From positions 70,409 to 134,408 of the forward strand of contig JAUIIM010000001.1 of assembly GCA_030431785.1 (NCBI GenBank): DNA of 64,000 nucleotides. The letters run 5' to 3'. A program made the position numbers and the translations under genes. How positions within the stretch are numbered: the stretch's first letter is position 1; the number at the start of each line of letters is the position of its first letter. Source of the DNA: Acidimicrobiia bacterium. Lineage in GTDB: Bacteria > Actinomycetota > Acidimicrobiia > Spongiisociales > UBA5794. Of this stretch, positions 513-59,758 are shown one piece after another. Under the pieces are notes generated by a model. It searched no databases. It worked only from the letters and a program-made list of their open reading frames with translations, and was not told the origin of the DNA.

Positions 513-534
513 ACTAGGTAACTAGTTACCTAGT
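513..534. promoter_or_regulatory. 22-bp perfect AT-rich palindrome ACTAGGTAACTAGTTACCTAGT in a divergent promoter region
   Basis: Read directly from the sequence. Self-complementary over 22 bp and contains three CTAG tetramers. Lies between the Pr6Pr gene start (438, -) and the surface protein start (587, +) in otherwise GC-rich DNA. Confidence 0.5.
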
Positions 535-586
535 GCGCGAATCAATGACTTTCAAGGGGTTCGCGGGGTGCGACGAAGGGACGGGT

Positions 587-5856: not shown

Positions 5857-5997
5857 GGTGACCCGATCCCTTCGGTGAAGCCTCGTTGCACAGCGTACGC
5901 GAGTCTCCATCGTCATGGTGGCCTCGATCGCATCTCGGACCGGGCGATAGCCTTGGCGGTCGCGCTACTCAAGTATCGAGGGGACGGTGCCGATTCA

Positions 5998-10935: not shown

Positions 10936-12167
10936 AGTGTTCTCGCTTTCATGGTGAGGTGGACCTCGGTGCCGGCTCCGACGTCCGAATCGATCGTCAC
11001 GGTACCTCCATGGCGCAGCATCCGGCCGTTGATCGACTCAGCGATCCCTCTGCGGTCGCTGTCGACTGTTGCCGGGTCGAAGCCGCGGCCCTGGTCGCTG
11101 ATGAAGACTTCAACACCATCGGTCGTGACTTCTGCGAACACGGAGACACGATCGGCACCGCTGTGCTCCGCCGCGTTCATCATGGCTTCCGTGGCGGCAG
11201 CTACGAGTGCCACCTGCTGATCCTCCGGAAGGTCGGCCTCGCCTACTACCACCACGGACACCGGCACGTCATGTACTTCCTCCGCCTTCGTAGCGGCCGC
11301 TTGTAGCGCCCCCACGAGGGTCTCGGTGTCGCCAGCAGCCTCGTCGAACAACCACGCTCGCAGGTCGCGCTCTTGTGCGCGGGCGAGGGTCACCATCTTC
11401 TTGGGGTCATCGGACCGTTGGATCAGAGCAAGGGTCTGGAGTACTGAGTCGTGCAGGTGCGCCGCCATCTCGGCCTTCTCCTCCGATCGGATCCGTGCCC
11501 GTCGTTCGGATCGCAGGTCCTCGACGAGGGACCAGATCCAGGGTCCTGCGACCAGGAAGAATCCTGCAAGCGCTGCAACGATCGAGATGGCGAGCACTCC
11601 TATGCCTGCCAGGCGATCCAAGGAGGAGAGGGCGACAGCAAATCCGGCGACCATCATGACGACACCGCCGACGACGATCCACCACGACCGTTGTCGACCG
11701 TCGACCCCCGCGATCCCGGCGATTGACTTCTCGTAGTTGATCCCGGAAGTCTCGATGGCGATCGCAAGTCCGAAGATCACAAGGGTCGCTGGCCACACGA
11801 GGAGGCCGAGCCAGAGCCCGGACATCTGAAGGACCAGCATGACAGCGATGAACATGAGGAGGAGCCCGATCTGCTCCCTTGCGCCGAGGGGTTGCGCCGG
11901 TGTCGTCGTGCCGTCGTCGGGTGGGACGAGGAGAGCGAAGAGCACGTACAGGATCACACCGACGAACCCTGCGAGAGCAAGGCAAAGGAAGGCCGCCCGC
12001 ACATAGATGGGTGAGAGCCCGAGTCGTGCACCGATCCCGCCGGCGACGCCTGCGACCATCCGCTCGGAGCGCGAACGACGGAATGGCCAGGACAAGCGAG
12101 TGAATGGGGATGTCGGCTGGGTCACGGTGTGCTCACGGGTTCGAGTCTCGAGTGGTTGCTGGTGCAT
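10932..12167 (-). CDS. PspC-domain-containing sensor histidine kinase (LiaS-like, HisKA_3 type)
   Basis: ORF 10932..12305. Likely start is ATG 12167 (MHQQPLE). PspC domain: RSRSERMVAGVAGGIGARLGLSPIYVRAAFLCLALAGFVG. Multiple TM segments. H-box AAHLHDSVLQTLALIQ. C-terminal HATPase (NAAEHSGA...DQGRGF...GTEVHL). Confidence 0.85.
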   Translation of the reverse strand: MHQQPLETRTREHTVTQPTSPFTRLSWPFRRSRSERMVAGVAGGIGARLGLSPIYVRAAFLCLALAGFVGVILYVLFALLVPPDDGTTTPAQPLGAREQIGLLLMFIAVMLVLQMSGLWLGLLVWPATLVIFGLAIAIETSGINYEKSIAGIAGVDGRQRSWWIVVGGVVMMVAGFAVALSSLDRLAGIGVLAISIVAALAGFFLVAGPWIWSLVEDLRSERRARIRSEEKAEMAAHLHDSVLQTLALIQRSDDPKKMVTLARAQERDLRAWLFDEAAGDTETLVGALQAAATKAEEVHDVPVSVVVVGEADLPEDQQVALVAAATEAMMNAAEHSGADRVSVFAEVTTDGVEVFISDQGRGFDPATVDSDRRGIAESINGRMLRHGGTVTIDSDVGAGTEVHLTMKARTL

Positions 12168-12286
12168 GGTGTCATACGTCCACTCACCGGGCAATCGGGA
12201 ACGACCCTGACGCGACCCTGATATCTCGGGTATGCACAGGAACATTCCCGATACCAACGTGTAGCGAAGTCGGGCACGATGGTGAC

Positions 12287-13552
12287 ATGACAAACAACAC
12301 AACACACGACCCGAGCGCCCATGGCCGCTTCGAGCGGTCCCGTAGCGAGCGTGTGATCGCAGGTGTGGCTGGCGGAATCGCCCAGCGCCTCGAGATCAAC
12401 GCTTGGTGGATACGCCTCGGGTTCATCATCTTCGCCTTGGTAGGTGCGGGCATCCTCGCCTACGCCGCACTCTGGATATTCCTCCCGAATCCGGAAGAGC
12501 GCTACTCCGCTGCAACTCGGTGGTTCATGGAGCTCGACCTGACCGATAACGGCACGCTCATCGGCGTGATCCTCATGGGAGGGGCTGCCGTCGTGATCGC
12601 CTTCCAAGTGTTCGAGTTCTCCGGATGGGCGGTACTCGCGGCGATCATGTTCGCCGCAGGCATCATCCTCTTCCGGGGTGAGCCCCGGGTGCTCCCGCCA
12701 GAGCCAGACTCCATACTCGCATCCGCGGACGGGTCGACCGATGGCGGTGGGGTCACCGAACCTGACGACGACCACGAGTCCTCCGGACGGGACGGTGATG
12801 GTCCTGATGACGGAGAGGCTGCACCTGCTCCGTTCACGGCGACAGCGGACCGGCCGGTGCCACAGTCACAGGATCCCGATGGTGCGAACGTAGCGCACCG
12901 AACCGAGGCGGTGCGAACGTCGCCACCTTCGTACGTCGGGCGGCTCACGATCGCGTCGGTTCTGATCGTGCTCTCGGGCATGGGTCTGCTTGAAGCATCG
13001 GGTATTGAGGTTGCGGGATCGGAGAACCTCTTCGATCCGATCCACTACGCAGCAACGGCGCTGGGCATCGTCGGATTCGGTCTGTTGGTGTCAGCGTTCG
13101 TCGGGAGGGCTCGATGGCTCATAGCGATCGGTCTGCTTCTCGTTCCGGTGACGATCCTCGCTGCAGTCGTCCCATCTTCGTTCGCGTGGTCGTTCGGCGA
13201 GGAACGCTATGCCCCTCGATCGGTCGACTCCATCGAAGAGGTATACGAGTTGGGATTCGGCGAGCTGACGGTCGACCTGACGAACTTGTCCGAGGCGGAA
13301 CTCGAAGCGATCGGTCTCGTCCGGCTGAAGCTCGGCGCGGGTGAGGCTGTTGTGAAGCTGCCCGATGACGTCGGTGTGCGGATCATCGGAGAGATCGGAG
13401 CCGGAGCATCGGACAGCCACGCCGGCGTCGGGTACGGGGACTACGCAGGATTCGGAATCGACATCGACGAACGAATCGGGCCCTGGCCGACCGTCATCAC
13501 GGTCGAGGGCGAAGTCGGCTTCGGTGTATTGACCATCGAGATCGAGGAGTAG
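12287..13552 (+). CDS. PspC-domain membrane protein with LiaF-like C-terminal domain
   Basis: ORF 12104..13552, trimmed to ATG 12287 (MTNNTTHDP). RSRSERVIAGVAGGIAQRLEINAWWIRLGFIIFALVGAGILAYAALWIFLP is a PspC domain. The C-terminus has GELTVDLTNL...GAGEAVVKLPDDVGVRI. Divergent from the kinase gene. Confidence 0.8.
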   Translation: MTNNTTHDPSAHGRFERSRSERVIAGVAGGIAQRLEINAWWIRLGFIIFALVGAGILAYAALWIFLPNPEERYSAATRWFMELDLTDNGTLIGVILMGGAAVVIAFQVFEFSGWAVLAAIMFAAGIILFRGEPRVLPPEPDSILASADGSTDGGGVTEPDDDHESSGRDGDGPDDGEAAPAPFTATADRPVPQSQDPDGANVAHRTEAVRTSPPSYVGRLTIASVLIVLSGMGLLEASGIEVAGSENLFDPIHYAATALGIVGFGLLVSAFVGRARWLIAIGLLLVPVTILAAVVPSSFAWSFGEERYAPRSVDSIEEVYELGFGELTVDLTNLSEAELEAIGLVRLKLGAGEAVVKLPDDVGVRIIGEIGAGASDSHAGVGYGDYAGFGIDIDERIGPWPTVITVEGEVGFGVLTIEIEE

Positions 13553-15464: not shown

Positions 15465-16373
15465 ATGACCGACGCTGTTCGCCGTCCGATGACGGCTCCG
15501 ATGGTCGCCGCCCGCAAGGGTGGCGAGAAGCTGAAGATGGTCACCGCTTATGACGCCCCGACGGCGAGGATCGCCGATCGTGCGGGCGCGGACATCATCT
15601 TGGTGGGCGATTCCGTGGCCAACGTCGTGCTCGGCCACGACGACACCCTGGCCGTGACGGTCGACGTAATGGTGCATCACACCGCAGCGGTCACCCGCAC
15701 GGACCCGAAGGCGCTCGTCGTCGGAGACATGCCGTGGCTGTCGTACCACAGCACCACGCAGGAGACGGTCGCAAACGCCGGGCGTCTCATCCGTGAAGGG
15801 GGAGCCGGAGCGGTCAAGCTGGAGGGTGGTCGCAAGAGACTCGCGATGGTCGAGGCCGTTCGCGATGCCGAGATCCCGGTGATGGGTCATCTCGGCTTGA
15901 CACCGCAGTCTGTGCACTCGATGGGTGGGTATCGCGTACAGGGCAAGGAAGCCCACGCCGCCTATGAACTGATCTCAGACGCCAGCGCGCTGGTCGACGC
16001 CGGGGTCTTCGCCATCGTCCTCGAAGGGGTTCCCGATGTCGTCGCGTCGATCGTGACGGAGGAGATTCCGGTCCCAACGATCGGCATTGGAGCCGGCGCA
16101 GCATGCGATGGGCAGGTGTTGGTGTTCCACGACGTCACCGGCTTGGGGGCCGGGGAGTACCTGCCGAAGTTCGTCCGCCAGTATGCGTCCCTCGCCGATG
16201 ATGCCGTCGAGGCACTCGAGGCGTTCTTCGCGGATGTGGACTCAGGAGCCTTCCCCTCGGAGGTGGAGACATATCACATGCCTGCGGAGTCCGAGGAGAT
16301 CCTCCGCAACCTTGCGAATCCGAGTGACCACATCCTCGCCGACGAAGCCATGGAGCGGGCACCCGACGCCTGA
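15465..16373 (+). CDS. panB: 3-Methyl-2-oxobutanoate hydroxymethyltransferase
   Basis: ORF 15390..16373. Start is ATG 15465, after GGGGAGAGAGG. KMVTAYDAPTARIADRAGADIILVGDS...VKLEGG...MGHLGLTPQS are PanB signatures. Confidence 0.9.
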   Translation: MTDAVRRPMTAPMVAARKGGEKLKMVTAYDAPTARIADRAGADIILVGDSVANVVLGHDDTLAVTVDVMVHHTAAVTRTDPKALVVGDMPWLSYHSTTQETVANAGRLIREGGAGAVKLEGGRKRLAMVEAVRDAEIPVMGHLGLTPQSVHSMGGYRVQGKEAHAAYELISDASALVDAGVFAIVLEGVPDVVASIVTEEIPVPTIGIGAGAACDGQVLVFHDVTGLGAGEYLPKFVRQYASLADDAVEALEAFFADVDSGAFPSEVETYHMPAESEEILRNLANPSDHILADEAMERAPDA

Positions 16374-16429
16374 CAGTCTCTGCCGAGTCTCGAAGGGCGC
16401 TTGCTGGACCCCGCGGTAGCCTCGCGAGC

Positions 16430-16948
16430 ATGATCCGGTACGTACTGCTGGTGCTCTGTCTCATTGCGATCGTCGGTTGCACCGACGATGTGAACGACGG
16501 GCTACAGACATCATCGACGACACCGACGTCCGGTACGGATGCGATTTCGGTCCCTCCGCAACTGGCGGATCTCGAGGTGGAGGAGGTCACGGTCGGGGAC
16601 CGAATCCTCACGCTTGCGATCGCCGACTCTCCGACGCTTCGTAGCCAAGGGCTCATGGGTGTCGAGGATCTGGGCGATCTCGACGGAATGCTCTTCTACT
16701 GGCGTCACGACGCAGGCAGTGCAGGTTTCTGGATGAAGGACACGCTCATCCCGCTTGACGTCGTCTGGTTCCTGGAAGACGGATCATTTGCGGGTCGAGC
16801 GTCGATGGAACCGTGCCCTTCCACTGCTGATGACTGCCCGACGTACGATCCGGGCGACGGCATCGACTACCGCTTTGCGATCGAAGCAAATCCCGGCGAC
16901 CTGGACTGGATCGACACCTCGACCGTGATCGTCTACGAAGACGAGTAG
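16430..16948 (+). CDS. DUF192-domain lipoprotein
   Basis: 172 aa. Lipobox LIAIVGC. LAIADSPTLRSQGLMGVEDLGDLDGMLFYW...FWMKDTLIPLDVVWF is DUF192-like. Confidence 0.7.
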   Translation: MIRYVLLVLCLIAIVGCTDDVNDGLQTSSTTPTSGTDAISVPPQLADLEVEEVTVGDRILTLAIADSPTLRSQGLMGVEDLGDLDGMLFYWRHDAGSAGFWMKDTLIPLDVVWFLEDGSFAGRASMEPCPSTADDCPTYDPGDGIDYRFAIEANPGDLDWIDTSTVIVYEDE

Positions 16949-16960
16949 CGATCGAGGGTC

Positions 16961-16988
16961 TGAGTACTCAGTACTCAGTACGCAGTAC
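16961..16988. repeat. Heptanucleotide microarray (TSAGTAC)n, 4 units
   Basis: TGAGTAC TCAGTAC TCAGTAC GCAGTAC. The same motif family as 15294-15328. It recurs as GAGTACG AAGTACA at 17071-17084. Confidence 0.7.
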
Positions 16989-17167
16989 AAAGTGGTGGGA
17001 GGCAAGAGGTCACCGGTCTTCGTGTGTGTTCTCTTCACTTTGCGTCCTCCCTTTGGGGGGACGGACGACCGAGTACGAAGTACAGAGTGGTGGGAGGCAA
17101 GCGGCCTACCGGTCTTCCTGCATACCCGGTCTATTTTGCGTCCTCCCTTTAGGGGGGACGGACGACG
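16985..17167. repeat. Two tandem copies (~95-bp period) of a structured noncoding element between convergent genes; possible small RNA
   Basis: Copy 1 is 16985-17070 and copy 2 is 17080-17167. Conserved block A is GTACARAGTGGTGGGAGGCAAG.GG.C.ACCGGTCTTC. Conserved block B is TTTGCGTCCTCCCTTT(G/AG)GGGGGACGGACGAC. They flank a divergent 17-nt centre. Block B folds as a 9-bp hairpin, CGTCCTCCC/GGGGGGACG, with one G-U pair. Confidence 0.6.
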
Positions 17168-17262
17168 GGTTCGGCGGTTCGTCAGAAGCGCCGTGGCCGG
17201 GGTCAGGGGGGCGTGGGAGCCTGCGACCGCAACGCCGATCCACCGAACCCCAACGCTGCGCC

Positions 17263-18138
17263 CTACACGCCATCCCACGCCGCTTCCTCGATCAGGTCAA
17301 GGAGTGCTGCGTTCCCGGCTGGTGTCAGATGTACCAAATCGCTGCGGAGGTACACGTCTTCGTTGCCGGTGGCAGCGGTGTGCCAATCGACCAGGAACGC
17401 GTTGTCATACCGGTCCACGCCTGCCTCGATGATCGCGTTCGTCTCCGATTCCCACCCTCGGTCGATCCGGAGGTTGACGAACAGCACACGAGGCACCAGC
17501 GCGGCCACCTCCATGATTCGATCCATCCGTTCGTCCGTTGCTCCACCGTTCGCACCGAGATTGACCACGAGGAGCTGGGGTCCATCGGGTCGGTCGACCA
17601 TGTCGATGACCGCATCGACTCCCTCGCCAAACGGGCGACTGGTTCGGGCATTGATTCGTGCACCGACAAATCGCTCCTCGATCTCGCTCGTCGCTCCCAC
17701 CGTCAGCGAATCTCCGACGAACACCGCCCACCCTTCAGGCGGTTCGAACAGGAAGGGGACCGCTGCCGTCCGCGTCGAGCCGTCGGGGTTGGTGGCAGTG
17801 ACGACCAACGTGTTCTCGCCCGGCTGACTCCACACATCGTCGAACCGGAAGACCCCGTGCTCGTCGACATCGGCTTCGACATCGTTGACCGTCACCGTCG
17901 CCCCGGGACTCGTCCTGCCATCGATCACTGTCTGGTACACGTCGACGGTCTCGCCGGGTGCGAGATCGAACGTCAGGTCGGGTGGGTCGGATCCTTCGGG
18001 TTCTCCGATGTTGATGAACGTGGTGGTCGTCTCGGCCCCGGGCGGGACGGTGGTAGTGGCGTCTTCGCTCCCGGTCGTGCAGGCGGCGAGGGCGAGACCG
18101 AGTGCGAGCACGCATGCGCCGATCCGCCGGAATCTCAT
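17263..18138 (-). CDS. Lipoprotein with an N-terminal Ig-like region and a C-terminal SGNH-hydrolase domain paralogous to the OatA C-terminal domain
   Basis: ORF 17263..18204. Start is ATG 18138 (MRFRRIGACVLALGLALAACTTGS lipobox). FVGDSLTVGA...VVNLGANGG...DLVHLTPAG parallel FIGDSVMYGA...VLHLGTNGP...DRVHLNGEG of the neighbouring acyltransferase. Confidence 0.7.
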   Translation of the reverse strand: MRFRRIGACVLALGLALAACTTGSEDATTTVPPGAETTTTFINIGEPEGSDPPDLTFDLAPGETVDVYQTVIDGRTSPGATVTVNDVEADVDEHGVFRFDDVWSQPGENTLVVTATNPDGSTRTAAVPFLFEPPEGWAVFVGDSLTVGATSEIEERFVGARINARTSRPFGEGVDAVIDMVDRPDGPQLLVVNLGANGGATDERMDRIMEVAALVPRVLFVNLRIDRGWESETNAIIEAGVDRYDNAFLVDWHTAATGNEDVYLRSDLVHLTPAGNAALLDLIEEAAWDGV

Positions 18139-49377: not shown

Positions 49378-50274
49378 TCAGTCACCTACGAAGGCGAACA
49401 TCCACCTGCCCGTCTCGGTGATTGCGATCCGGAACCGGTCGTAGGCACCGCCGGCGTCCGAGTCAGCGATCAGGTCTTCCACGGTGACTCCGTTGAGTGC
49501 CGCCACGATCGCGAGTAGGTCTTCGTCCCAGAAGTCAGCGAGTGACTCGTCGCTGTCATATCGCGTGACCGGTGGCCACACATAGAACACCTCGACTTCG
49601 TCGGGCGTCGGCTCCCACTGCTCCACACTGAACGGCAGCTCCGTAAGGGCCACGGCGAGTTTCGCAAGCGAGTCGTATTGGGCGTCGTGGTCAGCAAGTG
49701 CGTCTGTCGATTGGGCTGCTCCCCAGAAGATCAGATCGTCAGGGTTCACGAGCGCAGCCTCGACACTGAGCGCTACGAGACCGGCGAAATCGCACGCCAT
49801 GGCAAGGTCGACGAGGTTGTCGCGGAGCGCCACAGCCTCGGCGCTGAGTGAGTTCGGGTCGGCTGCGTCATACGACGGAACGACCAGACCGCGTTCAGCG
49901 GAGCACCGTGCTTCGGTCGCAGGTGTCGTCGTTGTCGGTGAACTGGAGGTCGTCACCGGGTCGGTCGTCGTCGTCGAGCTCTCTGTAGCCGACCCGTCGT
50001 CCACCGTGGTCGTCGTCGCCGGTGGGCTGGTGGCAGGGACCGGGGACGGACCGGTGTCGAGGAGGGAAGCAAACACCATCGCCACCCCGACGACTGCGAC
50101 GGTCGCTACGGCGGCAGCGATCAGTGCGATTGGCTTCCGCCACGTGGGCACTGGCGCAGCAGAAGCGAGCTTTGCGAATCCTGTCGTCATGTCGTCCCAG
50201 TGGGGTGCCGGAGGCGTCTGGGCTTCGATGTCTGCGAAGACGTTGCTGACTTCGTCGTGAAAACGGTCAGTCAC
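49378..50274 (-). CDS. Putative anti-sigma factor (single TM, Thr/Pro-rich linker, extracytoplasmic domain of unknown family)
   Basis: 298 aa. TM segment is PIALIAAAVATVAVVGVAMVFASLL. An 8-nt overlap with the ECF sigma gene stop. Confidence 0.55.
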   Translation of the reverse strand: MTDRFHDEVSNVFADIEAQTPPAPHWDDMTTGFAKLASAAPVPTWRKPIALIAAAVATVAVVGVAMVFASLLDTGPSPVPATSPPATTTTVDDGSATESSTTTTDPVTTSSSPTTTTPATEARCSAERGLVVPSYDAADPNSLSAEAVALRDNLVDLAMACDFAGLVALSVEAALVNPDDLIFWGAAQSTDALADHDAQYDSLAKLAVALTELPFSVEQWEPTPDEVEVFYVWPPVTRYDSDESLADFWDEDLLAIVAALNGVTVEDLIADSDAGGAYDRFRIAITETGRWMFAFVGD

Positions 50275-50704
50275 GGTCGACCACCTCCGCGAGCTTTCTG
50301 CGGGCGAGGTGGAGGTACCGACGTACCGTGCTCGGTCGACAGCCCATCTGGGAAGCGGCTTGCTCGCTCGTCATTCCCTCCCAGTACGTCCAATAGACCG
50401 CAGCACGCTGTTGGAGCGGAAGGGTGAGTACGGCGTCGAGTACATCAGGACGCGCCTCTCGGGCCTCGATCGCTTGATCTCGCAGTGGGACCTCGGTTCG
50501 GCGGCGCTTTCGATCGATCGCCTCGTTGAGTACGGACCGCATCAGATACGGCTTTGGGTCGTCGAGTGACGACAGGGACCGGTGCTTCTTGTAGATCCTG
50601 GTCACCACACTGGACACGATGTCCTCCGCATTCGATGGGCCTGCAAGGACGGCCGCGTAACGAACCAGGGCATCCTTGTGTTGCCGGTAGATCGTCTCGT
50701 CCAT
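50267..50704 (-). CDS. ECF-type sigma-70 family RNA polymerase sigma factor
   Basis: ORF 50267..50935. Likely start is ATG 50704 (MDETIYRQHKDALVRYAAVLAG...). Region 4: LPLQQRAAVYWTYWEGMTSEQAASQMGCRPSTVRRYLHLARRKL. Confidence 0.75.
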   Translation of the reverse strand: MDETIYRQHKDALVRYAAVLAGPSNAEDIVSSVVTRIYKKHRSLSSLDDPKPYLMRSVLNEAIDRKRRRTEVPLRDQAIEAREARPDVLDAVLTLPLQQRAAVYWTYWEGMTSEQAASQMGCRPSTVRRYLHLARRKLAEVVDRD

Positions 50705-50763
50705 CCACCCATTATCACGAACGAACCTGGCCGATTGTTGCACGCGATCGGTGCCGGAGGTCG

Positions 50764-50790
50764 TAGACCGAGGGTCTTCGGGCAGGTTCA
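50764..50790 (-). promoter_or_regulatory. ECF-like promoter candidate TGAACC-N16-GTCTA upstream of the sigma gene
   Basis: The minus strand reads ATGAACCtgcccgaagaccctcgGTCTAcg, about 60 nt upstream of the sigma start. Pattern match only. Confidence 0.3.
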
Positions 50791-50844
50791 TGATCGTGTC
50801 ACGGGGCATGCGTACCATGCGTATCGACGTGTTGAGGAGTGACC

Positions 50845-52572
50845 ATGACGAACGGGAATGACCCAGCGGCAGCGTTGGGGTTGGTGGTCGGTACCGAGGA
50901 CTCGACGCCCCTCGATTTCTGGTTCGCCGTATCACCGGGCCAACGCGTGCAGCTCGACGACGTCGTCGCCGTGGATCGTTCGCTGCCTGACGGCACCAAG
51001 GTCGTGATGTACGGCATCGTCAGTCAGATTCGAGCGCGCCAGGAGGGGGCACGATTCGAGAGCGACGTCTTCCTGATCACCGACGGTGTGTTGCCCGGTG
51101 AGGTCACGGAAGCAGCACAGGTCCAGATCACGCGCATCGTGCCGGAGACATTTGTCCCTCCGCTGCCCGGTGCACGTGTTCGTCGCGCAGAGGATGCCGA
51201 ACGAGATGCAGCCCTTGACTTTGAAGGGGTCGACCGTCGTCTCCCTGCTGGTCTTTCCCGAGAAGACGAACCGATCTGGCTCGATCTCGACTTCCTCGAC
51301 GGGACGAAGGGCGCACACCTCAACATCGCCGGGATCTCGGGGGTGGCGACGAAGACGAGCTACGCAACCTTCCTGCTCTACTCGTTGTTCACCTCGGGGG
51401 TGCTCGGGAAGGAAGCAGCGAATACCAAGGGGATCATCTTCAACGTGAAGGGTGAGGACCTGCTGTTCCTCGACCACGGGAACACTGCGCTCGACGACGA
51501 GAGCCGGGCCCGCTACGGCGCCTTGGGTCTTGAACCGGCTCCGTTCCGTGACGTAGGCATCCTCGCACCACCCCGTGCAGGTGACGTGAATGCAACTCCG
51601 GATACGGGCGCTCGTCAGCAAGGTGTGGCCCCGTTCTTCTGGACGATCGCCGACTTCTGTAGCCAGCGTCTGCTCCCGTTCTTGTTCGCCGACGCGGAGG
51701 ACGAGCGTCAGCAATACACGATCGTCGTCCAGTCGGTGACAGCGAGACTCGCTGAGATCGCATCGACATCGACGACCGACGATGGTGCCGTCCGGATCGA
51801 GGGGACGACTGTCCGCACTTTCCGCGATCTGGTGGGCGCCATCGAACGAAGGCTGATCCCGGATGATCCCGACGAACCGATCGACCCGTCTTGGTCGGGG
51901 AGAGCCATCGGCGGCGGGACGATCAACGCCTTCGTCCGGCGTCTCGCCTCAGCGACCCGATACGTCGAGCATCTCATCCGATCCGACATCAGTGATTCAC
52001 CGTCACATGCCCTTGACCTCGACTCCCACCAGCTGACCGTCGTGGACATCCACCGGTTGCACGATCGAGCGAAGCGATTCGTCGTCGGTGTCGTGTTGCG
52101 GCAGGCGTTCGAGGCGAAGGAGCGGTCCGGTGTGGCGAAGCCGTTGCAGTTCATCGTGCTGGACGAGCTGAACAAGTACGCCCCGCGTGACGGTTCGAGT
52201 CCCATCAAGGAGATCCTCCTCGATGTCGCAGAGCGCGGGCGTTCGCTAGGCATCATCCTCATCGGTGCGCAACAGACCGCTAGCGAGGTCGAGCGTCGGA
52301 TCGTCGCCAACAGCGCGATACGTGTCGTCGGTCGTCTCGACTCGGCCGAGGCGAGACGGGATGAGTACGGGTTCCTCCCACCGGTCCAGCGTCAGCGTTC
52401 GACGATTCTCAAACCCGGGTCGATGTACGTGGTCCAGCCGCGTCTTCCGGTACCGCTCCTCGTCGAGTTCCCCTTCCCTGCATGGGCGACGAGGTCGTCG
52501 GAGGCCGACCCGGCACACAACCCCTCCGGTACCCCCGTTCCTGATGATCCCTTTGCAGGCCTCGAACGGTGA
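50845..52572 (+). CDS. herA: HerA-like (DUF87) hexameric ATPase/translocase with an N-terminal HAS-barrel
   Basis: ORF 50839..52572. ATG 50845 follows GAGGAG. N-terminus LGLVVGTEDSTPLDFWFAV..GQRVQLDDVVAV...VMYGIVSQI. P-loop-like LNIAGISGVATKTSY. Walker B LQFIVLDELNKYAP. RGRSLGIILIGAQQTASEV. Confidence 0.75.
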   Translation: MTNGNDPAAALGLVVGTEDSTPLDFWFAVSPGQRVQLDDVVAVDRSLPDGTKVVMYGIVSQIRARQEGARFESDVFLITDGVLPGEVTEAAQVQITRIVPETFVPPLPGARVRRAEDAERDAALDFEGVDRRLPAGLSREDEPIWLDLDFLDGTKGAHLNIAGISGVATKTSYATFLLYSLFTSGVLGKEAANTKGIIFNVKGEDLLFLDHGNTALDDESRARYGALGLEPAPFRDVGILAPPRAGDVNATPDTGARQQGVAPFFWTIADFCSQRLLPFLFADAEDERQQYTIVVQSVTARLAEIASTSTTDDGAVRIEGTTVRTFRDLVGAIERRLIPDDPDEPIDPSWSGRAIGGGTINAFVRRLASATRYVEHLIRSDISDSPSHALDLDSHQLTVVDIHRLHDRAKRFVVGVVLRQAFEAKERSGVAKPLQFIVLDELNKYAPRDGSSPIKEILLDVAERGRSLGIILIGAQQTASEVERRIVANSAIRVVGRLDSAEARRDEYGFLPPVQRQRSTILKPGSMYVVQPRLPVPLLVEFPFPAWATRSSEADPAHNPSGTPVPDDPFAGLER

Positions 52573-53726
52573 AGCTTCTCCACACGAGCGATTGGCACGT
52601 CGGTAAGACGATCCGGAACAAGAACCGAGCCGACGAGCACGAAGCAGCACTCGCCGAGATCGCCGAGATCGCCGATGCCAACGAAGTTGATGTCGTGGTG
52701 GTCGCCGGCGACCTCTTCGATACGGCCTCACCGACACCCGAGTCCGAACGAATCGTGTATCGAGCGTTGCTGGACCTTGCGGAGACCGGTGCTGCGGTTG
52801 CGGTGATCGCTGGCAACCACGACAACCCGAGGCGTCTCGCAGCTGTTGCACCGTTGCTCGATCTCGGGAAGGTGCAGCTCGTGACACAACCATTGGCTCC
52901 AGCTGATGGTTCGGTCCGTGTGCTGGAAGGACGATCCGGCCAAGAGGTCGCGATCGCGATGCTCCCGTTCGTCTCCAAGCGAGGCATCGTGCGCGCCGAT
53001 GAGCTCATGGACAACGCCGCGTATCAGAATGCTCAGCTCTACAGCGAGCGGATGCGGATTCTCATCGGAACACTGGCGGATGCGTTGCCGGACGATCTGC
53101 CCTCCGTCCTCACCACCCATGCGTTCGTGCTCGGCGGCCAGGCGGGAGGGGGTGAACGCCCGGCACACCTCGTCGACGAGTATGCGATCGCATCGCAGGC
53201 CTTCCCGGCCACCGTCGGGTATGTCGCCCTCGGTCATCTGCATCGTCCTCAACGGATCCATGGTGCGACCGCCATCTACTACAGCGGTTCGCCGCTTCAG
53301 ATCGACTTTGGTGAGGAGGCGGAGCGCAAGCAGGTCAACGTCGTGGAGCTGGCCGTCGGGACGCCGGCGAAGGTGACGGAGGTCCCGCTCACGGCAGGTC
53401 GGCCCCTTGTGACCCTGAGCGGCTCGCTCGCCGAGCTCGCCTCCCAGCTCGAGACGACCGACGATCGAGCCTGGATTCGAGCCCGGGTCGATGAACCGGT
53501 GCGGGCCGGACTCGCGGACGAAGTCCGGGAGCTCCTGGGAGAACGGGTCGTCGATGTGTTCATCGAGCGTCCGGAGTCGACGCCACGGCGGCGCCGAACA
53601 CGCCAGACGTCTCGCACACCGCAAGAGGCCTTCCGTGCCTTCCTCGACGACCGTGACATCGCCGATGATCGCCTTTCCGACCTCTTCGACGACCTGTACG
53701 AGCAAGTGAGCGAGGCGACGGACTGA
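52569..53726 (+). CDS. sbcD: SbcD/Mre11-family nuclease
   Basis: 385 aa. GTG start overlaps the herA stop (GTGA). LLHTSDWHVG, VVVAGDLFD, VIAGNHDN, LGHLH phosphoesterase motifs. Confidence 0.88.
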   Translation: MKLLHTSDWHVGKTIRNKNRADEHEAALAEIAEIADANEVDVVVVAGDLFDTASPTPESERIVYRALLDLAETGAAVAVIAGNHDNPRRLAAVAPLLDLGKVQLVTQPLAPADGSVRVLEGRSGQEVAIAMLPFVSKRGIVRADELMDNAAYQNAQLYSERMRILIGTLADALPDDLPSVLTTHAFVLGGQAGGGERPAHLVDEYAIASQAFPATVGYVALGHLHRPQRIHGATAIYYSGSPLQIDFGEEAERKQVNVVELAVGTPAKVTEVPLTAGRPLVTLSGSLAELASQLETTDDRAWIRARVDEPVRAGLADEVRELLGERVVDVFIERPESTPRRRRTRQTSRTPQEAFRAFLDDRDIADDRLSDLFDDLYEQVSEATD

Positions 53727-56107
53727 TGCGCCCGACGACGCTCGATCTCAAGGGATTCGGCACCTTCCGCGAACCGACGACGGTCGACTTCGAGGATGTC
53801 GACCTGGCAGCGGTGTCCGGACCGACCGGTGCGGGCAAGTCGACGATCGTCGATGCGCTCACGTTTGCTCTCTACGGGTCCGTCACCCGCTACGACGACG
53901 CTCGTCTCGTGGCACCGGTCATCAACTCGATGTCGAACGAGGCGCGGGTACGACTCGATTTCGAGGTGGAAGGAGTCGGGTATACCGCTGTCCGCGTGGT
54001 CCGACGGACGAAGTCGGGTGGTGCCACCACGAAAGAGGCGCGGCTGCAACGCGGCGATGAGGTGGTCGCTGACGACGCCAAGGGCATGACATCATCGGTG
54101 GAGGAGTTGCTGGGGCTGTCGTTCAACCAGTTCACCAAGACCATCGTGCTCCCTCAGGGTGAGTTTGCGACGTTCCTCCACGACTCCGGGACGGATCGGC
54201 AGGCGTTGCTCCGACAGCTGCTCGAGTTCGGTGTCTATGAGGAGATCGGGCGTCAGGCCCGTGGACTGGCGGACCGGCTGAAAGGTTCGATCGACACACT
54301 GGCTCGTCGTCTCGAAGCCATGGGTGAGGTCTCGGACGAAGAACTCGATCAGCTCCGGTCGGTCCATGCCGACATCGACAAGGCAGCTACGAAGGCGAAG
54401 GAGCTCGCCGGAACTCTCACCGAGCAACAGGTCGCAGTCGACGCTGCTCGTGCCGCGCTTGACGAGCATGACGCCCATACCGCGGCGTTGTCCGACATCG
54501 CCGTTCCTACGGCGGTGGAGTCCCTGGGCAAGGCGATCGCCGGGGCGCAGCAAGCAGTTTCGGCGGCGACCGAGCATGAGGAACGGTGCCGTTCGCGGCT
54601 GCAAGCCCTCTCCGCCGAGGCCGAAGGAGCCCCAGACCCCAACGAGCTGCAAGCGTTGATCGCTGCCTACCAGGAACGGGACGAGTGGTCATCGAAGGTG
54701 GCCGAGGCCGAGAAGTCCGATCTTGCTGCGGCGGGCGAACTGGAACGTGCGACCGCCGCAGCGGGGAAGGCGACCACCAGTCTCGCGGACACAACAGAGC
54801 GGCTTGAGACCGCACGCCATCACGCCGGACTCGCCACCTACCAACGCCATCTCGTATCCGGCGAGCCGTGCCCCCTCTGCCAACAACCCGTCGACACGCT
54901 GCCGAGCATGGACGCAGTCGACGACGTCGAGGCGGCCGAGGCGGCCGTTGCCTCCGCGCGTTCTGATCACGATGCTGCTGCCGTCGCCTTGCGCTCGGCG
55001 GGCGAGCAGCGCGCCCGAACCGAAAGTGTCCTCAGGTCGTGCCGTGAGCGTCTCGCCGACATCGAGCAGAGACTCGCCGGGGCCCCCTCGGTCGATGAGC
55101 TCGCGGAGCAACTCGCTGAAGCCCGGAAGACTGCAGAACAGCGAGAGGAAGGGCGTCGAGAACTCGACGGTGCAACATCAGCAGTGCGGTCTGCGACGTC
55201 GCAGCTCGATGAACTCCGCACCCAAGAGAATGCGCTCCGTGCGGGGTTCGGTGAGGCACGAGACGCGGTCGTCGTCCTCGATCCGCCACAGCCGAGTGGG
55301 GAGGGCTTGGCAGATGACTGGCAAGCACTTGCACGCTGGGCAGAGGAGCGGGCAGCGCTTCGAGCCGCCGAACGTAAACAGCTGGTCGATCACCATGTCG
55401 AGGTCTCGGCGGCGTTCGCCAAGACCCAGGGCGAGTTCGTCTCGGTGGTCGAACCGTTCGTCGACACGGATTCGAGCGATGACATCATGCTTGCGCTCGC
55501 TCGGGAAGGAGATCGTGTTGTCGCCCAGATCTCCGAGGCCGAGAAGCTCGCCGAGGAGCGGGCGACGCTGTCGGCCGAGCTCGCATCATCCACGGAGCGC
55601 TTCGCAGTCGCGAACGAGCTCGGGCAGCTGCTGAAGGCGAACGGCTTCGAACGCTGGTTGATGGATGAGGTGATGGACGTCCTCATCGAACGAGCGTCGG
55701 CGAGACTCATGGAGCTGTCGAGCGAGCGGTATCAGCTACTCCACGACGACGGTTCGTTCCTCGTGGTCGATCATCAGAACGCCGGTGAACGCCGTGACGT
55801 CAAGACGCTCTCCGGTGGCGAGACGTTCCTCGCATCCCTGTCGCTGGCGTTGGCGTTGAGTGACAGCATCGCTGAGCTCGCCCCGGCGTCGACACCGCGG
55901 TTCGAGACGATCGTGCTCGACGAAGGGTTCGGTGCCCTCGACGTCGAGACGCTCGATGTCGCTGCCTCCGCCGTGGAGGAACTCGGAGCAAGCGGCCGAA
56001 TGGTCATCGTCGTCACGCACATCGCTGCACTCGCCGAGCGACTCCCCACCCGGTTCATCGTGGGCAAGGGTCCCTCAGGATCGACCGTCACGAGGACGGA
56101 GCAATGA
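53726..56107 (+). CDS. sbcC: SbcC/Rad50-family SMC-like ATPase with a CxxC zinc hook
   Basis: 793 aa. GPTGAGKST Walker A, long coiled coil, and CPLC at 54869-54880 (mid-protein). LSGGETFLASLSLALAL signature and IVLDEGFGALD Walker B. The start overlaps the sbcD stop (TGATG). Confidence 0.88.
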   Translation: MRPTTLDLKGFGTFREPTTVDFEDVDLAAVSGPTGAGKSTIVDALTFALYGSVTRYDDARLVAPVINSMSNEARVRLDFEVEGVGYTAVRVVRRTKSGGATTKEARLQRGDEVVADDAKGMTSSVEELLGLSFNQFTKTIVLPQGEFATFLHDSGTDRQALLRQLLEFGVYEEIGRQARGLADRLKGSIDTLARRLEAMGEVSDEELDQLRSVHADIDKAATKAKELAGTLTEQQVAVDAARAALDEHDAHTAALSDIAVPTAVESLGKAIAGAQQAVSAATEHEERCRSRLQALSAEAEGAPDPNELQALIAAYQERDEWSSKVAEAEKSDLAAAGELERATAAAGKATTSLADTTERLETARHHAGLATYQRHLVSGEPCPLCQQPVDTLPSMDAVDDVEAAEAAVASARSDHDAAAVALRSAGEQRARTESVLRSCRERLADIEQRLAGAPSVDELAEQLAEARKTAEQREEGRRELDGATSAVRSATSQLDELRTQENALRAGFGEARDAVVVLDPPQPSGEGLADDWQALARWAEERAALRAAERKQLVDHHVEVSAAFAKTQGEFVSVVEPFVDTDSSDDIMLALAREGDRVVAQISEAEKLAEERATLSAELASSTERFAVANELGQLLKANGFERWLMDEVMDVLIERASARLMELSSERYQLLHDDGSFLVVDHQNAGERRDVKTLSGGETFLASLSLALALSDSIAELAPASTPRFETIVLDEGFGALDVETLDVAASAVEELGASGRMVIVVTHIAALAERLPTRFIVGKGPSGSTVTRTEQ

Positions 56108-57024
56108 TGCAATTTGCGGTCGATGCTTGGGAGCCGGACTACGGAGCGGGTGGGGACAGCACCCACCTCGACAAGACCGAAGGGATGGTCGACGTCGGGG
56201 TCGAACTCGGAGCCGCCGAGTGGGAACCGGTGGACCCCGGTGCTGTCGACCCTCCCGAGAGTGTGATGTTCGTCGACGGAGTCCGGAGGATCGACGCCCG
56301 ACTGTGGATCACGTCAGCCGACGGTTTGGTGCATCCCGGAGTGTGTGCATCGTTTGCCGCCGGTGCTGTGGTCGCCAGAGGCGGCGAGGCGAGCGTCGAG
56401 GCGATCAAGGTGGGTCGTGGTCTGTTTGCGCTCGCAGGGGAAGGCTTGGGTCCGATCGTCACGAAGGACGTCACCTATGCGTTGTACCCGGTCGCCGATG
56501 ACTCGAGCGAGGGTCTGTATCTCGGTGTCCACGAGCAGATGACGGCCCTCGAGTTGTCGATCGAGTCCGATGGCATCGATCTCGTCGTGTTCGATGGTCC
56601 CCTGAGGGGTCGGCAGTCAGCGACGGCTGTCGGCTATGTGAAGACACATCATGTCCAGTACCTCCCGGAGGACCAACAGCGGGTGGTGTATCGGTTGGCG
56701 CCGGGTCAGCGTTCACCCCTCTTCCTCGTAGGTGGTCAGGGCTTCTCGAGGTGGTCGTGGTATGTCCGACTGCCCGGGCCGATCACGCACCCGCTTGCCG
56801 GGGTGGTGCGCTGTGAGCTGGCGGGTCTGGGGACGGTGGACGACGCCGCATGGCGCGCCTCGCTAGTGACCGCGACGCTCGGGCGTTTCGCCAGCGAACC
56901 CCACAAGGACGGTCGGGCACCCCAGAACCTCTACCCGATCGCTGGGCTCGAGCGGGAACTCCAACGTCGCTTGGGCGACCGAGTGTTCCTCGAACGCGGT
57001 CTTCGGCTCGCAGCGTCCGGTTGA
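56104..57024 (+). CDS. nurA: NurA-like nuclease (RNase H-like fold predicted)
   Basis: 306 aa. The ATG overlaps the sbcC stop. VMFVDGVRRID, EQMTALELS and DLVVFDGPLRG are placed like the NurA catalytic D/E/D motifs. The call rests on motif and context only. Confidence 0.6.
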   Translation: MMQFAVDAWEPDYGAGGDSTHLDKTEGMVDVGVELGAAEWEPVDPGAVDPPESVMFVDGVRRIDARLWITSADGLVHPGVCASFAAGAVVARGGEASVEAIKVGRGLFALAGEGLGPIVTKDVTYALYPVADDSSEGLYLGVHEQMTALELSIESDGIDLVVFDGPLRGRQSATAVGYVKTHHVQYLPEDQQRVVYRLAPGQRSPLFLVGGQGFSRWSWYVRLPGPITHPLAGVVRCELAGLGTVDDAAWRASLVTATLGRFASEPHKDGRAPQNLYPIAGLERELQRRLGDRVFLERGLRLAASG

Positions 57025-57028
57025 CGCT

Positions 57029-59758
57029 TCAGCGTGGTTCGCGCAATGCCGCTTGTGCGGCGGCGAGTCGCGCGACAGGAACACGCGGAGGCGAGCAGCT
57101 CACGTAGTCGAGACCGAGCCGGCGACTCAACGCGATCGACTCGGGATCTCCGCCGTGCTCCCCGCATATCCCCGCATTCAAGTCTGCACGTGTGGCACGA
57201 CCCTTCTCGATGGCGATCCGCATCAGCTCACCGACGCCTTCGACGTCCAAGGTCGAGAACGGATTGCGTTCGAGGACCCCTTCCTCGAGGTAGTGGACGA
57301 GGAACGCCTTCTCCGCGTCGTCGCGACTGATGCCGAACGTCATCTGTGTCAGGTCGTTGGTCCCGAATGAGATGAACTCGGCGTACTCCGCGATCTCGTC
57401 GGCGGTCAATGCTGCCCGCGGGATCTCGATCATCGTGCCGAATTCGTAGTCGATGTCCGCACCGGTCTCGTCCATGACTGCCCGTGCCTCTTCTTCGAGT
57501 GTGGCTCGTTGGCGAGCGAGCTCGTTCACGTGCGAGGTGAGCGGGATCATGATCTTGGGGTGGACCGTCTTCCCTTCGTCGGCCACCTGACACGCCGCCT
57601 CGAAGATGGCTCGCACCTGCATCCGGGTCAGACCAGGGAGCGCGATCCCGAGTCGAACGCCCCTGAGGCCGAGCATCGGATTCGCCTCGCGCAGGCTTTC
57701 GACACGTTCAAGGAGATGCTCTGCCTCCTCGATCTGTGACAGGATCTCATCGATCTCAGTGAGCGAACCAGCGGACTGGATACGGATCTTCAGATCGGTC
57801 AGGTTCGTCGTCAACTCTTCGTAACTGGGCAGGAACTCGTGGAGGGGCGGGTCGATCAGACGGATCGTCACGGGCAGACCATCCATCGCTCTGAACAATC
57901 CGACGAAGTCGGACCGTTGCATCGGGAGCAGCTGCTCGAGGGTCTCGGTCACCTCAGCTGGGATGGTCGCCGTGATCATCCTCTGCATGATCGGGAGACG
58001 ATCGGGGGCGAAGAACATGTGCTCGGTGCGCACCAGTCCAACGCCTTCGGCTCCGTACTCCCGGGCGAGTACCGCGTCCTCCGGGGTGTCCGCGTTGGTC
58101 CAGACACCTATGTCACGCTTCTCGTCTGCCCACCCGAGCAGCTTCCGAAGCCATTCGTTCCCGAGATCCGGCGTCTGCATCGCGACCTCGCCGAGGATGA
58201 CTTCACCGGTCGTCCCGTCGACGCAGATGACCTCTCCCTCGCGGATCACTTGATCGCCGACATGGAGTACGCGGTCGGCGAGGTCGATCACGAGCCGGTC
58301 GGCACCGACGACGGCAGGCTTGCCGAACTGCCGGGCGACGAGGGCGGCATGGCTGGTGCGGCCCCCGCGACTGGTCAGGATGCCGTTCGCCGCAAGCATG
58401 CCGTGCACGTCGTCCGGCTTGGTCTCGGGGCGAACCATGATGACATCGCGCCCTTCTTCGACGGCCCACCGTTCGGCCAAGTCGGCATCGAACGCGATCA
58501 TGCCCACGGCGGCTCCAGGGGAGACGTTGAGTCCGGTCGCCAGCAGGCGCCCCTCGTTCGCAGCCTCCTTCTTTGCATCCGCCAAGAACGACGGGTGGAG
58601 GAAGAAGTCGATCTGATCGGGCAGGACTCGTTGGAGCGCCTCCTCCTTCGTGATGAGCCCTTCTTCGGCCATGTCGACCGCAATGCGCACAGCGGCCTGT
58701 GCTGTCCGCTTTCCATCGCGTGTCTGTAGGAGCCAGAGCTTTCCGCGCTCGATCGTGAACTCCATGTCCTGCATGTCGCGATAGTGCTGCTCCAGAGCAG
58801 TAGCGATCCTCTCAAACTCGGCGAGGCTCTCAGGGAACTCCTCCGCCATCTGGTGGACCGGCTTGGTGACGCGGATGCCGGCGACCACATCCTCGCCCTG
58901 CGCATTCGTGAGGTAGTCCCCCTCGAGGTTCGGCTCACCGGTGGTGGCGTTGCGCGACATCGCGACGCCAGTCGCCGAATCGTCACCCATGTTCCCGAAC
59001 ACCATGGTCTGGATGTTGACCGCGGTCCCGAGGTCATGGGCTATTCCGGCCGCGTTCCGATAGTCACGTGCACGCTTCCCGTCCCACGAGCGAAACACGG
59101 CTTCGATCGCGAGATGCAGCTGCTCCACTGGGTCTTCCGGGAAGGTCCGCCCGGCGTAGCGTTCGACGATCGCCTTGAACTCGTCAGCGATGGACCGGAA
59201 GTCGCTCGCTTCGAGGTCGGAGTCGTTCTCGACTCCTCGCTCGTTGCGGTATCGGTCAAGAACCTGTTCGAACGGTTCGTCCCTGACACCGAGCACCACA
59301 GCGCCGAACATCTGGATCAGGCGACGATAGGAGTCGTAGACGAAGTGCTCGTCGCCCGTCAACCGCACGAGTCCCTCGACGACGTCGGCGTTCATGCCGA
59401 TGTTGAGGACGGTGTCCATCATCCCGGGCATCGAGAACTTCGCGCCCGACCGGCAGGAGATCAAGAGAGGCTCGTCTGCGTCGCCGAACTGCTTTCCCGT
59501 GGCCTTTTCGGTGTCGTGCAATGCCGCCGCTACCTGATCGACGAGGCCGTCGGGGAATTCCTCCCCCTGTCCAAGGTACGCGTTGCAAGCCTCGGTGGTG
59601 ATCGTGAATCCGGGGGGTACGGGCACGCCAATGCGCGTCATCTCGCCAAGATTCGCTCCCTTGCCGCCCAACAGACCGCGAACCTTGTCCCAGTCGCCGT
59701 CGACGAAATCCTCCGCCGACGCCACCTCAGCGAATCCGTAGACCCACCTCGTCACCAT
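57029..59758 (-). CDS. ppdK: Pyruvate, phosphate dikinase
   Basis: ORF 57029..59770. Probable start is ATG 59758 (MVTRWVYGFAE...GGKGANLGEM). TSRGGRTSHAALVARQFGKP phospho-His region. A C-terminal PEP-utilizing domain. Confidence 0.92.
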   Translation of the reverse strand: MVTRWVYGFAEVASAEDFVDGDWDKVRGLLGGKGANLGEMTRIGVPVPPGFTITTEACNAYLGQGEEFPDGLVDQVAAALHDTEKATGKQFGDADEPLLISCRSGAKFSMPGMMDTVLNIGMNADVVEGLVRLTGDEHFVYDSYRRLIQMFGAVVLGVRDEPFEQVLDRYRNERGVENDSDLEASDFRSIADEFKAIVERYAGRTFPEDPVEQLHLAIEAVFRSWDGKRARDYRNAAGIAHDLGTAVNIQTMVFGNMGDDSATGVAMSRNATTGEPNLEGDYLTNAQGEDVVAGIRVTKPVHQMAEEFPESLAEFERIATALEQHYRDMQDMEFTIERGKLWLLQTRDGKRTAQAAVRIAVDMAEEGLITKEEALQRVLPDQIDFFLHPSFLADAKKEAANEGRLLATGLNVSPGAAVGMIAFDADLAERWAVEEGRDVIMVRPETKPDDVHGMLAANGILTSRGGRTSHAALVARQFGKPAVVGADRLVIDLADRVLHVGDQVIREGEVICVDGTTGEVILGEVAMQTPDLGNEWLRKLLGWADEKRDIGVWTNADTPEDAVLAREYGAEGVGLVRTEHMFFAPDRLPIMQRMITATIPAEVTETLEQLLPMQRSDFVGLFRAMDGLPVTIRLIDPPLHEFLPSYEELTTNLTDLKIRIQSAGSLTEIDEILSQIEEAEHLLERVESLREANPMLGLRGVRLGIALPGLTRMQVRAIFEAACQVADEGKTVHPKIMIPLTSHVNELARQRATLEEEARAVMDETGADIDYEFGTMIEIPRAALTADEIAEYAEFISFGTNDLTQMTFGISRDDAEKAFLVHYLEEGVLERNPFSTLDVEGVGELMRIAIEKGRATRADLNAGICGEHGGDPESIALSRRLGLDYVSCSPPRVPVARLAAAQAALREPR

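Follow-up and report, generated by a model that had tools for sequence, protein, structure and literature searches.

Why would an actinobacterial chromosome carry the gene set of an archaeal DNA-end-resection operon? In Sulfolobus the genes of this operon stand in the order herA, mre11, rad50, nurA (PMC4351679), and HerA and NurA, present in nearly all archaea, have a patchy distribution among bacteria (PMC4663267). Four genes with these roles, in this order, lie in a 64,000-nucleotide (nt) stretch of an Acidimicrobiia genome (contig JAUIIM010000001.1), here called the window; all coordinates are window positions. A first-pass annotation of this stretch had described an archaeal-style module, either acquired laterally as a complete resection machine or serving as a DNA-degrading defense module. 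The reading that we consider likely is that the locus is a chromosomal, vertically inherited bacterial herA-sbcD-sbcC-nurA operon that probably encodes a damage-induced end-resection machine. Three rivals, namely defense against invading DNA, recent import of an archaeal cassette, and a pump for DNA transfer or chromosome segregation, are judged unlikely.

Four coupled genes encode HerA, SbcD, SbcC and NurA

The locus consists of four co-directional open reading frames (ORFs) on the plus strand (Table 1), each joined to the next by overlapping stop and start codons: GTGA at 52569-52572 (herA/sbcD), TGATG at 53724-53728 (sbcD/sbcC) and ATGA at 56104-56107 (sbcC/nurA). This coupling was part of the first-pass annotation, and the ORF listing together with the junction sequences confirmed every coordinate. 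The listing lets the first frame open at 50839 or 50845; the herA start is best placed at the ATG at 50845, because a GAGGAG stands just before it and because HerA has 575 amino acids (aa) in gene calls made independently on identical metagenomic contigs.

By homology, ORF1 is a bacterial HerA of the Deinococcus type, a member of the FtsK-HerA superfamily with a predicted P-loop ATPase core that has the Walker A lysine and the Walker B Asp-Glu pair. A sequence search of the PDB aligned its residues 4-557 with the HerA chain 7f6d_B (E=7.5e-154, 517 bits); PDB entry 7F6D is the HerA-NurA complex of Deinococcus radiodurans (PMC9960219). It is through this search alone that ORF1 was identified as HerA. 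All remaining PDB matches were HerA-type ATPases, and VirB4, TraG and FtsK, against which the first-pass annotation had set its HerA call, were not among them. The HerA family profile scores 720 bits (1.4e-215) with D. radiodurans HerA. The Walker B sequence FIVLDELNKYAP occupies aa 436-447, with VLDE at aa 438-441. The Walker A motif is deviant, GISGVATKTSY at aa 163-173 (window 51331-51363), with ATKT in place of GK[ST]; this deviation is invariant throughout the bacterial family and identical in D. radiodurans HerA. Among 27 diverse homologs, G166, A168, K170, T171, D440 and E441 are all invariant. The N-terminal 310 aa align with residues 8-336 of D. radiodurans HerA (269 bits) and by this homology should contain the HAS-barrel domain that binds NurA.

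ORF4 encodes a NurA with a predicted RNase-H-like fold. As a single sequence it matches D. radiodurans NurA (7f6d_H) at E=5.7e-23, and a profile built from 26 orthologs matches the same chain at 8.8e-46 and Thermotoga TM1739 at 2.3e-16. The AlphaFold2 model (pLDDT 89.8, pTM 0.87), when compared by Foldseek, resembles D. radiodurans NurA 7f6d_G (E=1.7e-18, TM 0.73), TM1739 (1zup, TM 0.70) and Sulfolobus NurA 2ygk (E=9e-7, TM 0.48, ~10% identity), the archaeal NurA being detected by fold only; after the NurA entries come EndoV and Argonaute PIWI-type RNase-H folds. The first-pass annotation had staked its NurA call beforehand on the presence of such a fold, which was found. The acidic motifs lie in FVDGVRR (aa 56-62), ALELS (148-152) and VVFDGPL (161-167), and D58, E150 and D164 are invariant in the 26 orthologs and again in a set of 30. 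The counterpart of D58 in the alignment with D. radiodurans NurA is the aspartate of VVDG, residue 73 in the numbering of the chain, and the published catalytically dead mutant is D53A (PMC4663267); residue 73 would be D53 if the chain carries a 20-residue tag offset. Many NurA orthologs at 55-62% identity carry the Pfam NurA domain (PF09376), and the NCBI name of the Aquihabitans ortholog is "DNA double-strand break repair nuclease NurA".

The two middle genes encode an SbcD and an SbcC. In SbcD the phosphoesterase motifs are HTSDWH (aa 5-10), AGDLFD (46-51), GNHD (82-85) and GHLH (222-225). The protein matches TIGR00619 (sbcd) at 180.9 bits (cut-off 77.65), Pfam Metallophos at 48.1 bits (cut-off 21.5) and SbcD_C at 21.6 bits, and falls below the genus-specific equivalog cut-offs (sbcd_Bac, PRK10966), as expected for a distant phylum. 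SbcC has a bipartite ABC-type ATPase head, its halves separated by a coiled coil, with a Walker A GPTGAGKST (aa 32-40), a signature LSGGE (695-699) and a Walker B VLDEGFG (730-736), and exceeds the Pfam cut-offs for AAA_23 (74.7 bits), SMC_N (47.9) and SbcC_Walker_B (43.7). Its TIGR00618 score, 245.9 bits, is below the cut-off of 478.5, a shortfall that its short coiled coil would explain (793 aa versus a 1043-position model). CPLC at aa 382-385 of the 793 is a predicted Rad50-type zinc hook at the coiled-coil apex, and a mid-length CP[VLI]C is kept in nearly all full-length SbcC orthologs of related loci (775-955 aa). Thus all motifs on which the first-pass annotation based its four names were located, and the names themselves are borne out by PDB, TIGR/Pfam, profile and fold matches.

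Archaeal order, bacterial sequences

With the archaeal operon (Sulfolobus, Pyrococcus; PMC3326311, PMC4351679) the locus shares the four roles, the gene order, the RNase-H-like fold of NurA and the FtsK-HerA-type ATPase core. That content and order, together with the archaeal prevalence of HerA and NurA noted above, would favor a recently acquired cassette, a complete archaeal herA-mre11-rad50-nurA set moved into an actinobacterium. In contrast, the sequences are only remotely related to the archaeal ones. SbcD scores 196 bits with sbcd_Bac and 186 bits with the E. coli-type SbcD model, versus 57 bits with Mre11_Sulfo, and SbcC scores 246 bits with TIGR00618 versus 99 bits with Rad50_Halo; for both proteins the bacterial models score two to three times as high as the archaeal ones. 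Moreover, the HerA profile reaches 23 bits (1.9e-4) with Sulfolobus HerA 4D2I, versus 720 bits with the D. radiodurans protein. The ~10% identity of archaeal NurA agrees with a published value, according to which NurA-HerA of archaea and bacteria share less than 20% identity (PMC9960219). The host differs as well, being a mesophile-type actinobacterial chromosome of 63% GC with a bacterial RecA-NDp-type promoter-like site upstream of the genes. "Archaeal-style" is thus apt for the gene order and not for the sequences. Given also that the window HerA nests among Acidimicrobiia and that the base composition is native (see below), we find the recent import of an archaeal cassette scarcely credible. 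Bacteria may have gained herA and nurA by an ancient transfer, which would not be specific to this locus.

The operon is common and probably vertically inherited

A HerA search returned at least 8000 scored clusters, the best 120 of which are 73-100% identical to the window protein; the few of these that name a source come from Acidimicrobiia, Acidimicrobiales or Acidimicrobiaceae. At 50% clustering the relatives form 483 clusters (E<1e-30), and in a scan where each GTDB species was represented by a single genome, at least 588 species genomes had this HerA type. Carriers include Acidimicrobiia, cultured Micromonospora species, Longispora albida and Plantactinospora sonchi, and also metagenome-assembled genomes (MAGs) labeled Dehalococcoidia, Saprospiraceae, Gammaproteobacteria and Acidobacteriota.

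For comparison of related loci we took the best 80, of which 61 have at least 5.8 kb of sequence downstream of herA. The co-occurrence survey proposed in the first-pass annotation gave a clear answer: sbcD, sbcC and nurA follow herA on the same strand and in the same order in 58 of the 61, at least 44 of them compactly. The four-gene arrangement is far beyond chance, because every protein has strong homologs and the order recurs to this extent. Median identities across the loci are 63% for HerA, 45% for SbcD, 38% for SbcC and 46% for NurA, and HerA identity spans 59-80% (best high-scoring segment pair) over the 58 complete loci. In a neighbor-joining tree, made without bootstrap and indicative only, the window HerA is sister to two Acidimicrobiales/Acidimicrobiaceae MAGs within a tight Acidimicrobiia clade. 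The GC content of the operon is 0.63-0.65 (0.74 at third codon positions), and that of the window is 0.63.

The operon is, then, common and, on this evidence, vertically inherited in this actinobacterial group. Recent horizontal acquisition was rejected on its native composition and its tree position in Acidimicrobiia, and the lateral origin offered in the first-pass annotation is not supported by these results. The operon being common among relatives, most of its novelty is removed: it is not a new kind of system and is ordinary in its lineage. The first-pass annotation had also allowed that it might be already characterised in actinobacteria. Here our literature searches found no paper characterising an actinobacterial herA-sbcD-sbcC-nurA operon.

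Several related loci (L numbers) depart from the common pattern. The HerAs of L031, L038, L040, L043, L044 and L045, from the Acidobacteriota, Gammaproteobacteria, Dehalococcoidia and Saprospiraceae MAGs, form one small cluster nested in actinobacterial diversity, at ~62% identity to the window protein and in loci without the TGTC promoter motif described below; export of the cassette from Actinomycetota or contamination of the bins would account for this. L004 is a complete MAG chromosome in which the interval 11762-13101, between intact herA and nurA genes, retains only ~68 residues of SbcD and the last ~350 residues of SbcC, and in L050 (12175-16067) the nurA region has three in-frame stops and the sbcD and sbcC matches are fragmentary. 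These two copies appear decayed, and the module may be dispensable in some lineages or the assemblies may be in error; the archaeal herA-mre11-rad50-nurA genes, in contrast, are essential (PMC4351679). In L084, a complete Acidimicrobiia genome, a gene for a DUF222-HNH endonuclease stands between sbcC and nurA (15935-17704). The herA-sbcD junction is interrupted in eight relatives by unrelated genes, as judged by eye from their translations, among them a transposase-like ORF (L011), a MerR-like regulator, oxidoreductases and a DsbA-like protein; a conserved fifth operon gene was considered and rejected, these inserts being unrelated cargo. Distant members of the family have other layouts, namely sbcC-nurA-herA in the metagenomic L087 and herA without its partners in L086. 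The exact HerA sequence of the window was found only on three short Logan contigs, each ending within sbcC, and the exact NurA protein had no record in the contig index searched.

A DNA-damage-type promoter motif precedes herA

What might control such an operon? The 22-nt site TGTCACGGGGCATGCGTACCAT lies ~27 nt upstream of herA, its -10-like TACCAT ending 26 nt 5' of the ATG, and is the sole match to TGTCR-N11-TANNNT on either strand of the window. This pattern is that of the actinobacterial RecA-independent damage promoter, published as tTGTCRgtg-8nt-TAnnnT (PMC5656591). This element is the 22-nt target of the regulator PafBC, in which a 5' TGTCGG is conserved (PMC8682763). As in the mycobacterial PafBC/RecA-NDp regulon, where it stands directly before DNA-repair genes including end-resection enzymes (PMC5656591, PMC8682763, PMC8223512), the element is non-palindromic.

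The motif is conserved. Of 78 related loci, 27 have the strict pattern in the 250 nt before herA versus 0.35 expected (~77-fold), expectations being computed from the related loci themselves. With the first -10 base left free, it precedes herA in 38 of the 78 (1.3 expected), which takes in all Micromonospora loci, reading TGTCGTACTCCTCGGGCAGGAT. A scan of all 80 related loci (~2.65 Mb over both strands) yielded 18 further occurrences. Six of these stand 6-38 nt before an sbcD start (L011:15049, L034:14605, L041:4007, L055:11729, L059:11851 and L061:8283), mostly where an insertion splits sbcD from herA. The gap is 27 nt in L055 and 38 nt in L059. In L011, L034, L041 and L061 it shrinks to 6-7 nt, and the sbcD transcripts of these four may well be leaderless and damage-inducible. 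Others precede genes for RmuC (one; L018:2040, plus strand), a LigD primase-polymerase (one; L059:474, minus strand), a DUF222-HNH endonuclease (two before one gene; L060:3829 and 3885, plus strand) and an AbiEi/DUF559 endonuclease (one; L023:12622, minus strand). These positions suggest that the damage regulon of Acidimicrobiia and Micromonosporaceae is a broader one. Judging from the DNA-repair genes that the motif marks in related genomes, the operon very probably belongs to a LexA-independent damage regulon. By-eye inspection of 50708-50844 found no LexA/Cheo box (GAAC-N4-GTTC).

HerA, NurA and SbcCD are not among the PafBC regulon members named in a review, and the mycobacterial regulon already contains the end-resection complexes RecBCD and AdnAB (PMC8223512). 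In our literature searches, no paper placed HerA in the PafBC regulon or described a damage promoter of this operon.

A role in defense is improbable

HerA is a component of several defense systems, including Sir2-HerA, DUF4297-HerA, TdpAB and MADS. Could the operon be an anti-phage or anti-plasmid system in which SbcCD acts as the sensor and HerA-NurA degrades incoming linear DNA? PADLOC gives weak partial matches on the C-terminal ATPase core of HerA (mad8, 4.3e-10; 'HerA type III coevolved', 8.1e-10) and matches of ~7e-25 on SbcC (mad3 and LmuB). The HerA profile is about as close to defense-system HerAs (8xau, 5.5e-8; 8yho, 1.3e-7) as to archaeal 4D2I, which scores no better against it than they do; the NurA model resembles the TdpAB nuclease subunit at TM 0.41; and it has been suggested, speculatively, that archaeal HerA-NurA has a dual role and also acts against foreign DNA (PMC3326311). 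However, the PADLOC-DB v2 matches cover generic ATPase cores only, with none on NurA and no full-length match to any component. HerA, at the identities given above, tracks the Acidimicrobiia phylogeny, unlike fast-turnover defense genes. The damage-type promoter conserved before herA and the native GC content also argue against defense.

Nor does the neighborhood resemble a defense island. The surroundings in the window are ordinary: a divergent ECF sigma factor, ppdK, a LuxR-type regulator, ABC/FtsX transporters and surface proteins. In two complete relatives, L084 and L085, which share synteny, the operon adjoins housekeeping genes for D-Ala-D-Ala ligase (Ddl), a Mur ligase and an amidase. 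No integrase, transposase, restriction-modification or toxin-antitoxin gene adjoins the operon in the window, L084 or L085. The DNA-degrading defense module of the first-pass annotation thus has little in its favor, and we consider it improbable, though less so than the other rivals.

Known systems and a proposed mechanism

To our knowledge, studies of bacterial HerA-NurA have been confined to Deinococcus and Thermus. The nearest known system is the D. radiodurans complex (7F6D, 7WRW; PMC9960219), whose HerA is a close full-length homolog sharing the Walker A and Walker B regions and whose NurA is of the same bacterial subtype. From this close homology of both proteins, a HerA hexamer bound to a NurA dimer is expected. 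The window NurA has 306 aa versus the 369-residue chain of D. radiodurans, with an identity of only ~27%. The layout differs from that in Deinococcus and Thermus too, with herA first, nurA last, sbcD-sbcC between them and all four genes translationally coupled. In D. radiodurans, sbcCD is presumably unlinked, and nurA-herA is presumably remote from genes of DNA metabolism. The Thermus nurA has a stop codon that overlaps the start of hepA, and the surrounding genes are unrelated to DNA metabolism (PMC5448004). Oceanithermus profundus likewise links a bacterial HerA/NurA pair to bacterial SbcD and SbcC, as nurA-hepA-sbcD-sbcC (PMC5448004); there, nurA-hepA precede sbcD and sbcC, the phylum is another one, and the arrangement is reported for that single organism.

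We infer from the sequences the activities of the four proteins, a physical coupling of SbcCD with HerA-NurA, and induction by damage. In the mechanism that we propose, DNA damage would activate transcription from the RecA-independent (PafBC-type) promoter at 50797-50818, and the overlapping stop and start codons would couple translation of all four proteins. SMC-like SbcC, dimerized by its zinc hook, and Mre11-type SbcD would then recognize DNA ends that are blocked or hairpinned and clean or open them, the processing for which SbcCD and Mre11-Rad50 are established. Next, a HerA hexamer would load on the duplex end and pump DNA into a NurA dimer at its HAS-barrel face, and NurA would degrade the 5' strand, by homology to the D. 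radiodurans complex (7F6D), which resects DNA ends in vitro (PMC9960219). The resulting 3' tail would serve RecA.

Might HerA instead pump DNA for cell-to-cell transfer or chromosome segregation, and not for repair? In Thermus thermophilus, a mutant in a second nurA-like gene is as defective in transjugation as a hepA mutant (PMC5448004), and an FtsK-like DNA-pumping role has been proposed (Iyer et al. 2004, as cited in PMC4663267). Against this, the tight linkage with SbcCD and a nuclease partner speaks for degradation or resection; no conjugation, integrative and conjugative element (ICE) or division genes lie near the operon in the window or in the relatives examined; and the damage-type promoter is common to RmuC, LigD and HNH genes in related loci. 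We regard a transfer or segregation pump as very improbable.

Support and limits of the resection reading

A number of observations weigh against the operon being a damage-induced resection machine. Chief among them, nurA and herA deletions in Deinococcus and Thermus leave resistance to radiation and mitomycin C modestly affected or even improved (PMC9960219, PMC4663267), and because these phenotypes are weak or opposite it is disputed what bacterial HerA-NurA does in vivo. The actinobacterial members are known from sequence alone, and it is operon linkage that suggests any physical or functional coupling between SbcCD and HerA-NurA. The profile searches proposed in the first-pass annotation recovered the SbcD and SbcC families; in Pfam and NCBIfam, HerA/DUF87 did not match ORF1 even at E=10, and ORF4 reached 20.5 bits with PF09376, 0.5 below the gathering score of 21. 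As for the promoter, the strict pattern is missing before herA in about half of the related loci, and the core in the window is TGTCAC instead of the mycobacterial TGTCGG, control by PafBC in Acidimicrobiia being suggested by the motif.

A broader proposal follows, and we make it tentatively, with somewhat less than even confidence. Many Actinomycetota (Acidimicrobiia, Micromonosporaceae) may possess a HerA-SbcD-SbcC-NurA machine that is induced by damage under PafBC/RecA-NDp control, a bacterial counterpart of the archaeal Mre11-Rad50-HerA-NurA pathway. Its SbcCD and HerA-NurA parts would be produced at a fixed ratio from a single coupled transcript and would work as one physical complex. If true, Actinobacteria would have an additional end-resection route beside AdnAB and RecBCD, and Micromonospora would offer a genetically tractable setting for the disputed in vivo role of bacterial HerA-NurA. 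What the analysis adds is the breadth of the operon and its RecA-NDp-type promoter motif: in a large part of Actinomycetota, a HerA-NurA pair stands in one operon with SbcCD in archaeal order, with HerA very strongly conserved and a putative LexA-independent damage promoter upstream. It yields the hypothesis of a damage-induced SbcCD-HerA-NurA resection pathway, for which Micromonospora and Longispora are cultured hosts.

Features of the locus and its neighbors

Table 1. Features of the herA-sbcD-sbcC-nurA locus (window positions).
Feature	Position	Strand	Description	Basis
Promoter-like site	50797..50818	+	22 nt, TGTCACGGGGCATGCGTACCAT; actinobacterial RecA-NDp / PafBC-type	Fits TGTCR-N11-TANNNT
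Shine-Dalgarno-like GAGGAG	50834..50839	+	5 nt 5' of herA ATG	Direct sequence reading
herA	50845..52572	+	Deinococcus-type bacterial HerA translocase/ATPase, 575 aa	PDB 7f6d_B match and family profile
sbcD	52569..53726	+	Mre11-family nuclease, 385 aa; GTG start overlapping herA stop	TIGR00619, Pfam
sbcC	53726..56107	+	Rad50/SMC-family ATPase, 793 aa; short coiled coil, predicted zinc hook	Pfam, TIGR00618
nurA	56104..57024	+	Bacterial-type NurA nuclease, 306 aa	7f6d_H match, profile, fold model
Inverted repeat AGCGTC-CGGTT-GACGCT	57012..57028		6-bp stem, N5 loop; spans nurA stop and 4-nt spacer	Sequence reading

At its 3' end the operon meets a convergent gene on the reverse strand. The nurA stop (TGA, 57022-57024) is separated from the stop of this neighbor (TCA in reverse complement, 57029-57031) by the 4-nt spacer CGCT, as the first-pass annotation had it. 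The neighbor encodes 913 aa with Pfam PPDK_N, PEP-utilizers and PEP-utilizers_C domains and is therefore ppdK. Neither canonical sigma-70 promoters nor intrinsic terminators rose above shuffled expectation, and the nurA/ppdK junction has no canonical terminator. The inverted repeat at the junction appears in the minimum-free-energy fold, the folding energy there being ordinary (z = -1.68); it may be a weak bidirectional hairpin and is the sole hairpin candidate for ending both convergent transcripts.

Divergent from herA, 49381-50707 on the minus strand holds the ECF sigma factor gene and then an ORF of 298 aa that overlaps it by 4 nt and has no Pfam match. The latter may be an anti-sigma factor, and the pair is probably unrelated to the operon. 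The flanks in the window (ppdK, the ECF sigma factor, the 298-aa ORF and the LuxR-type regulator) adjoin the operon in none of the 80 related loci, and for this reason their synteny is uninformative. Near the start of the window, at 3706-5916 on the minus strand and 533-3091 on the plus strand, are genes for two large surface proteins unrelated to the operon, an SLH-domain protein with many leucine-rich repeats and a DUF7507/DUF11 repeat protein.

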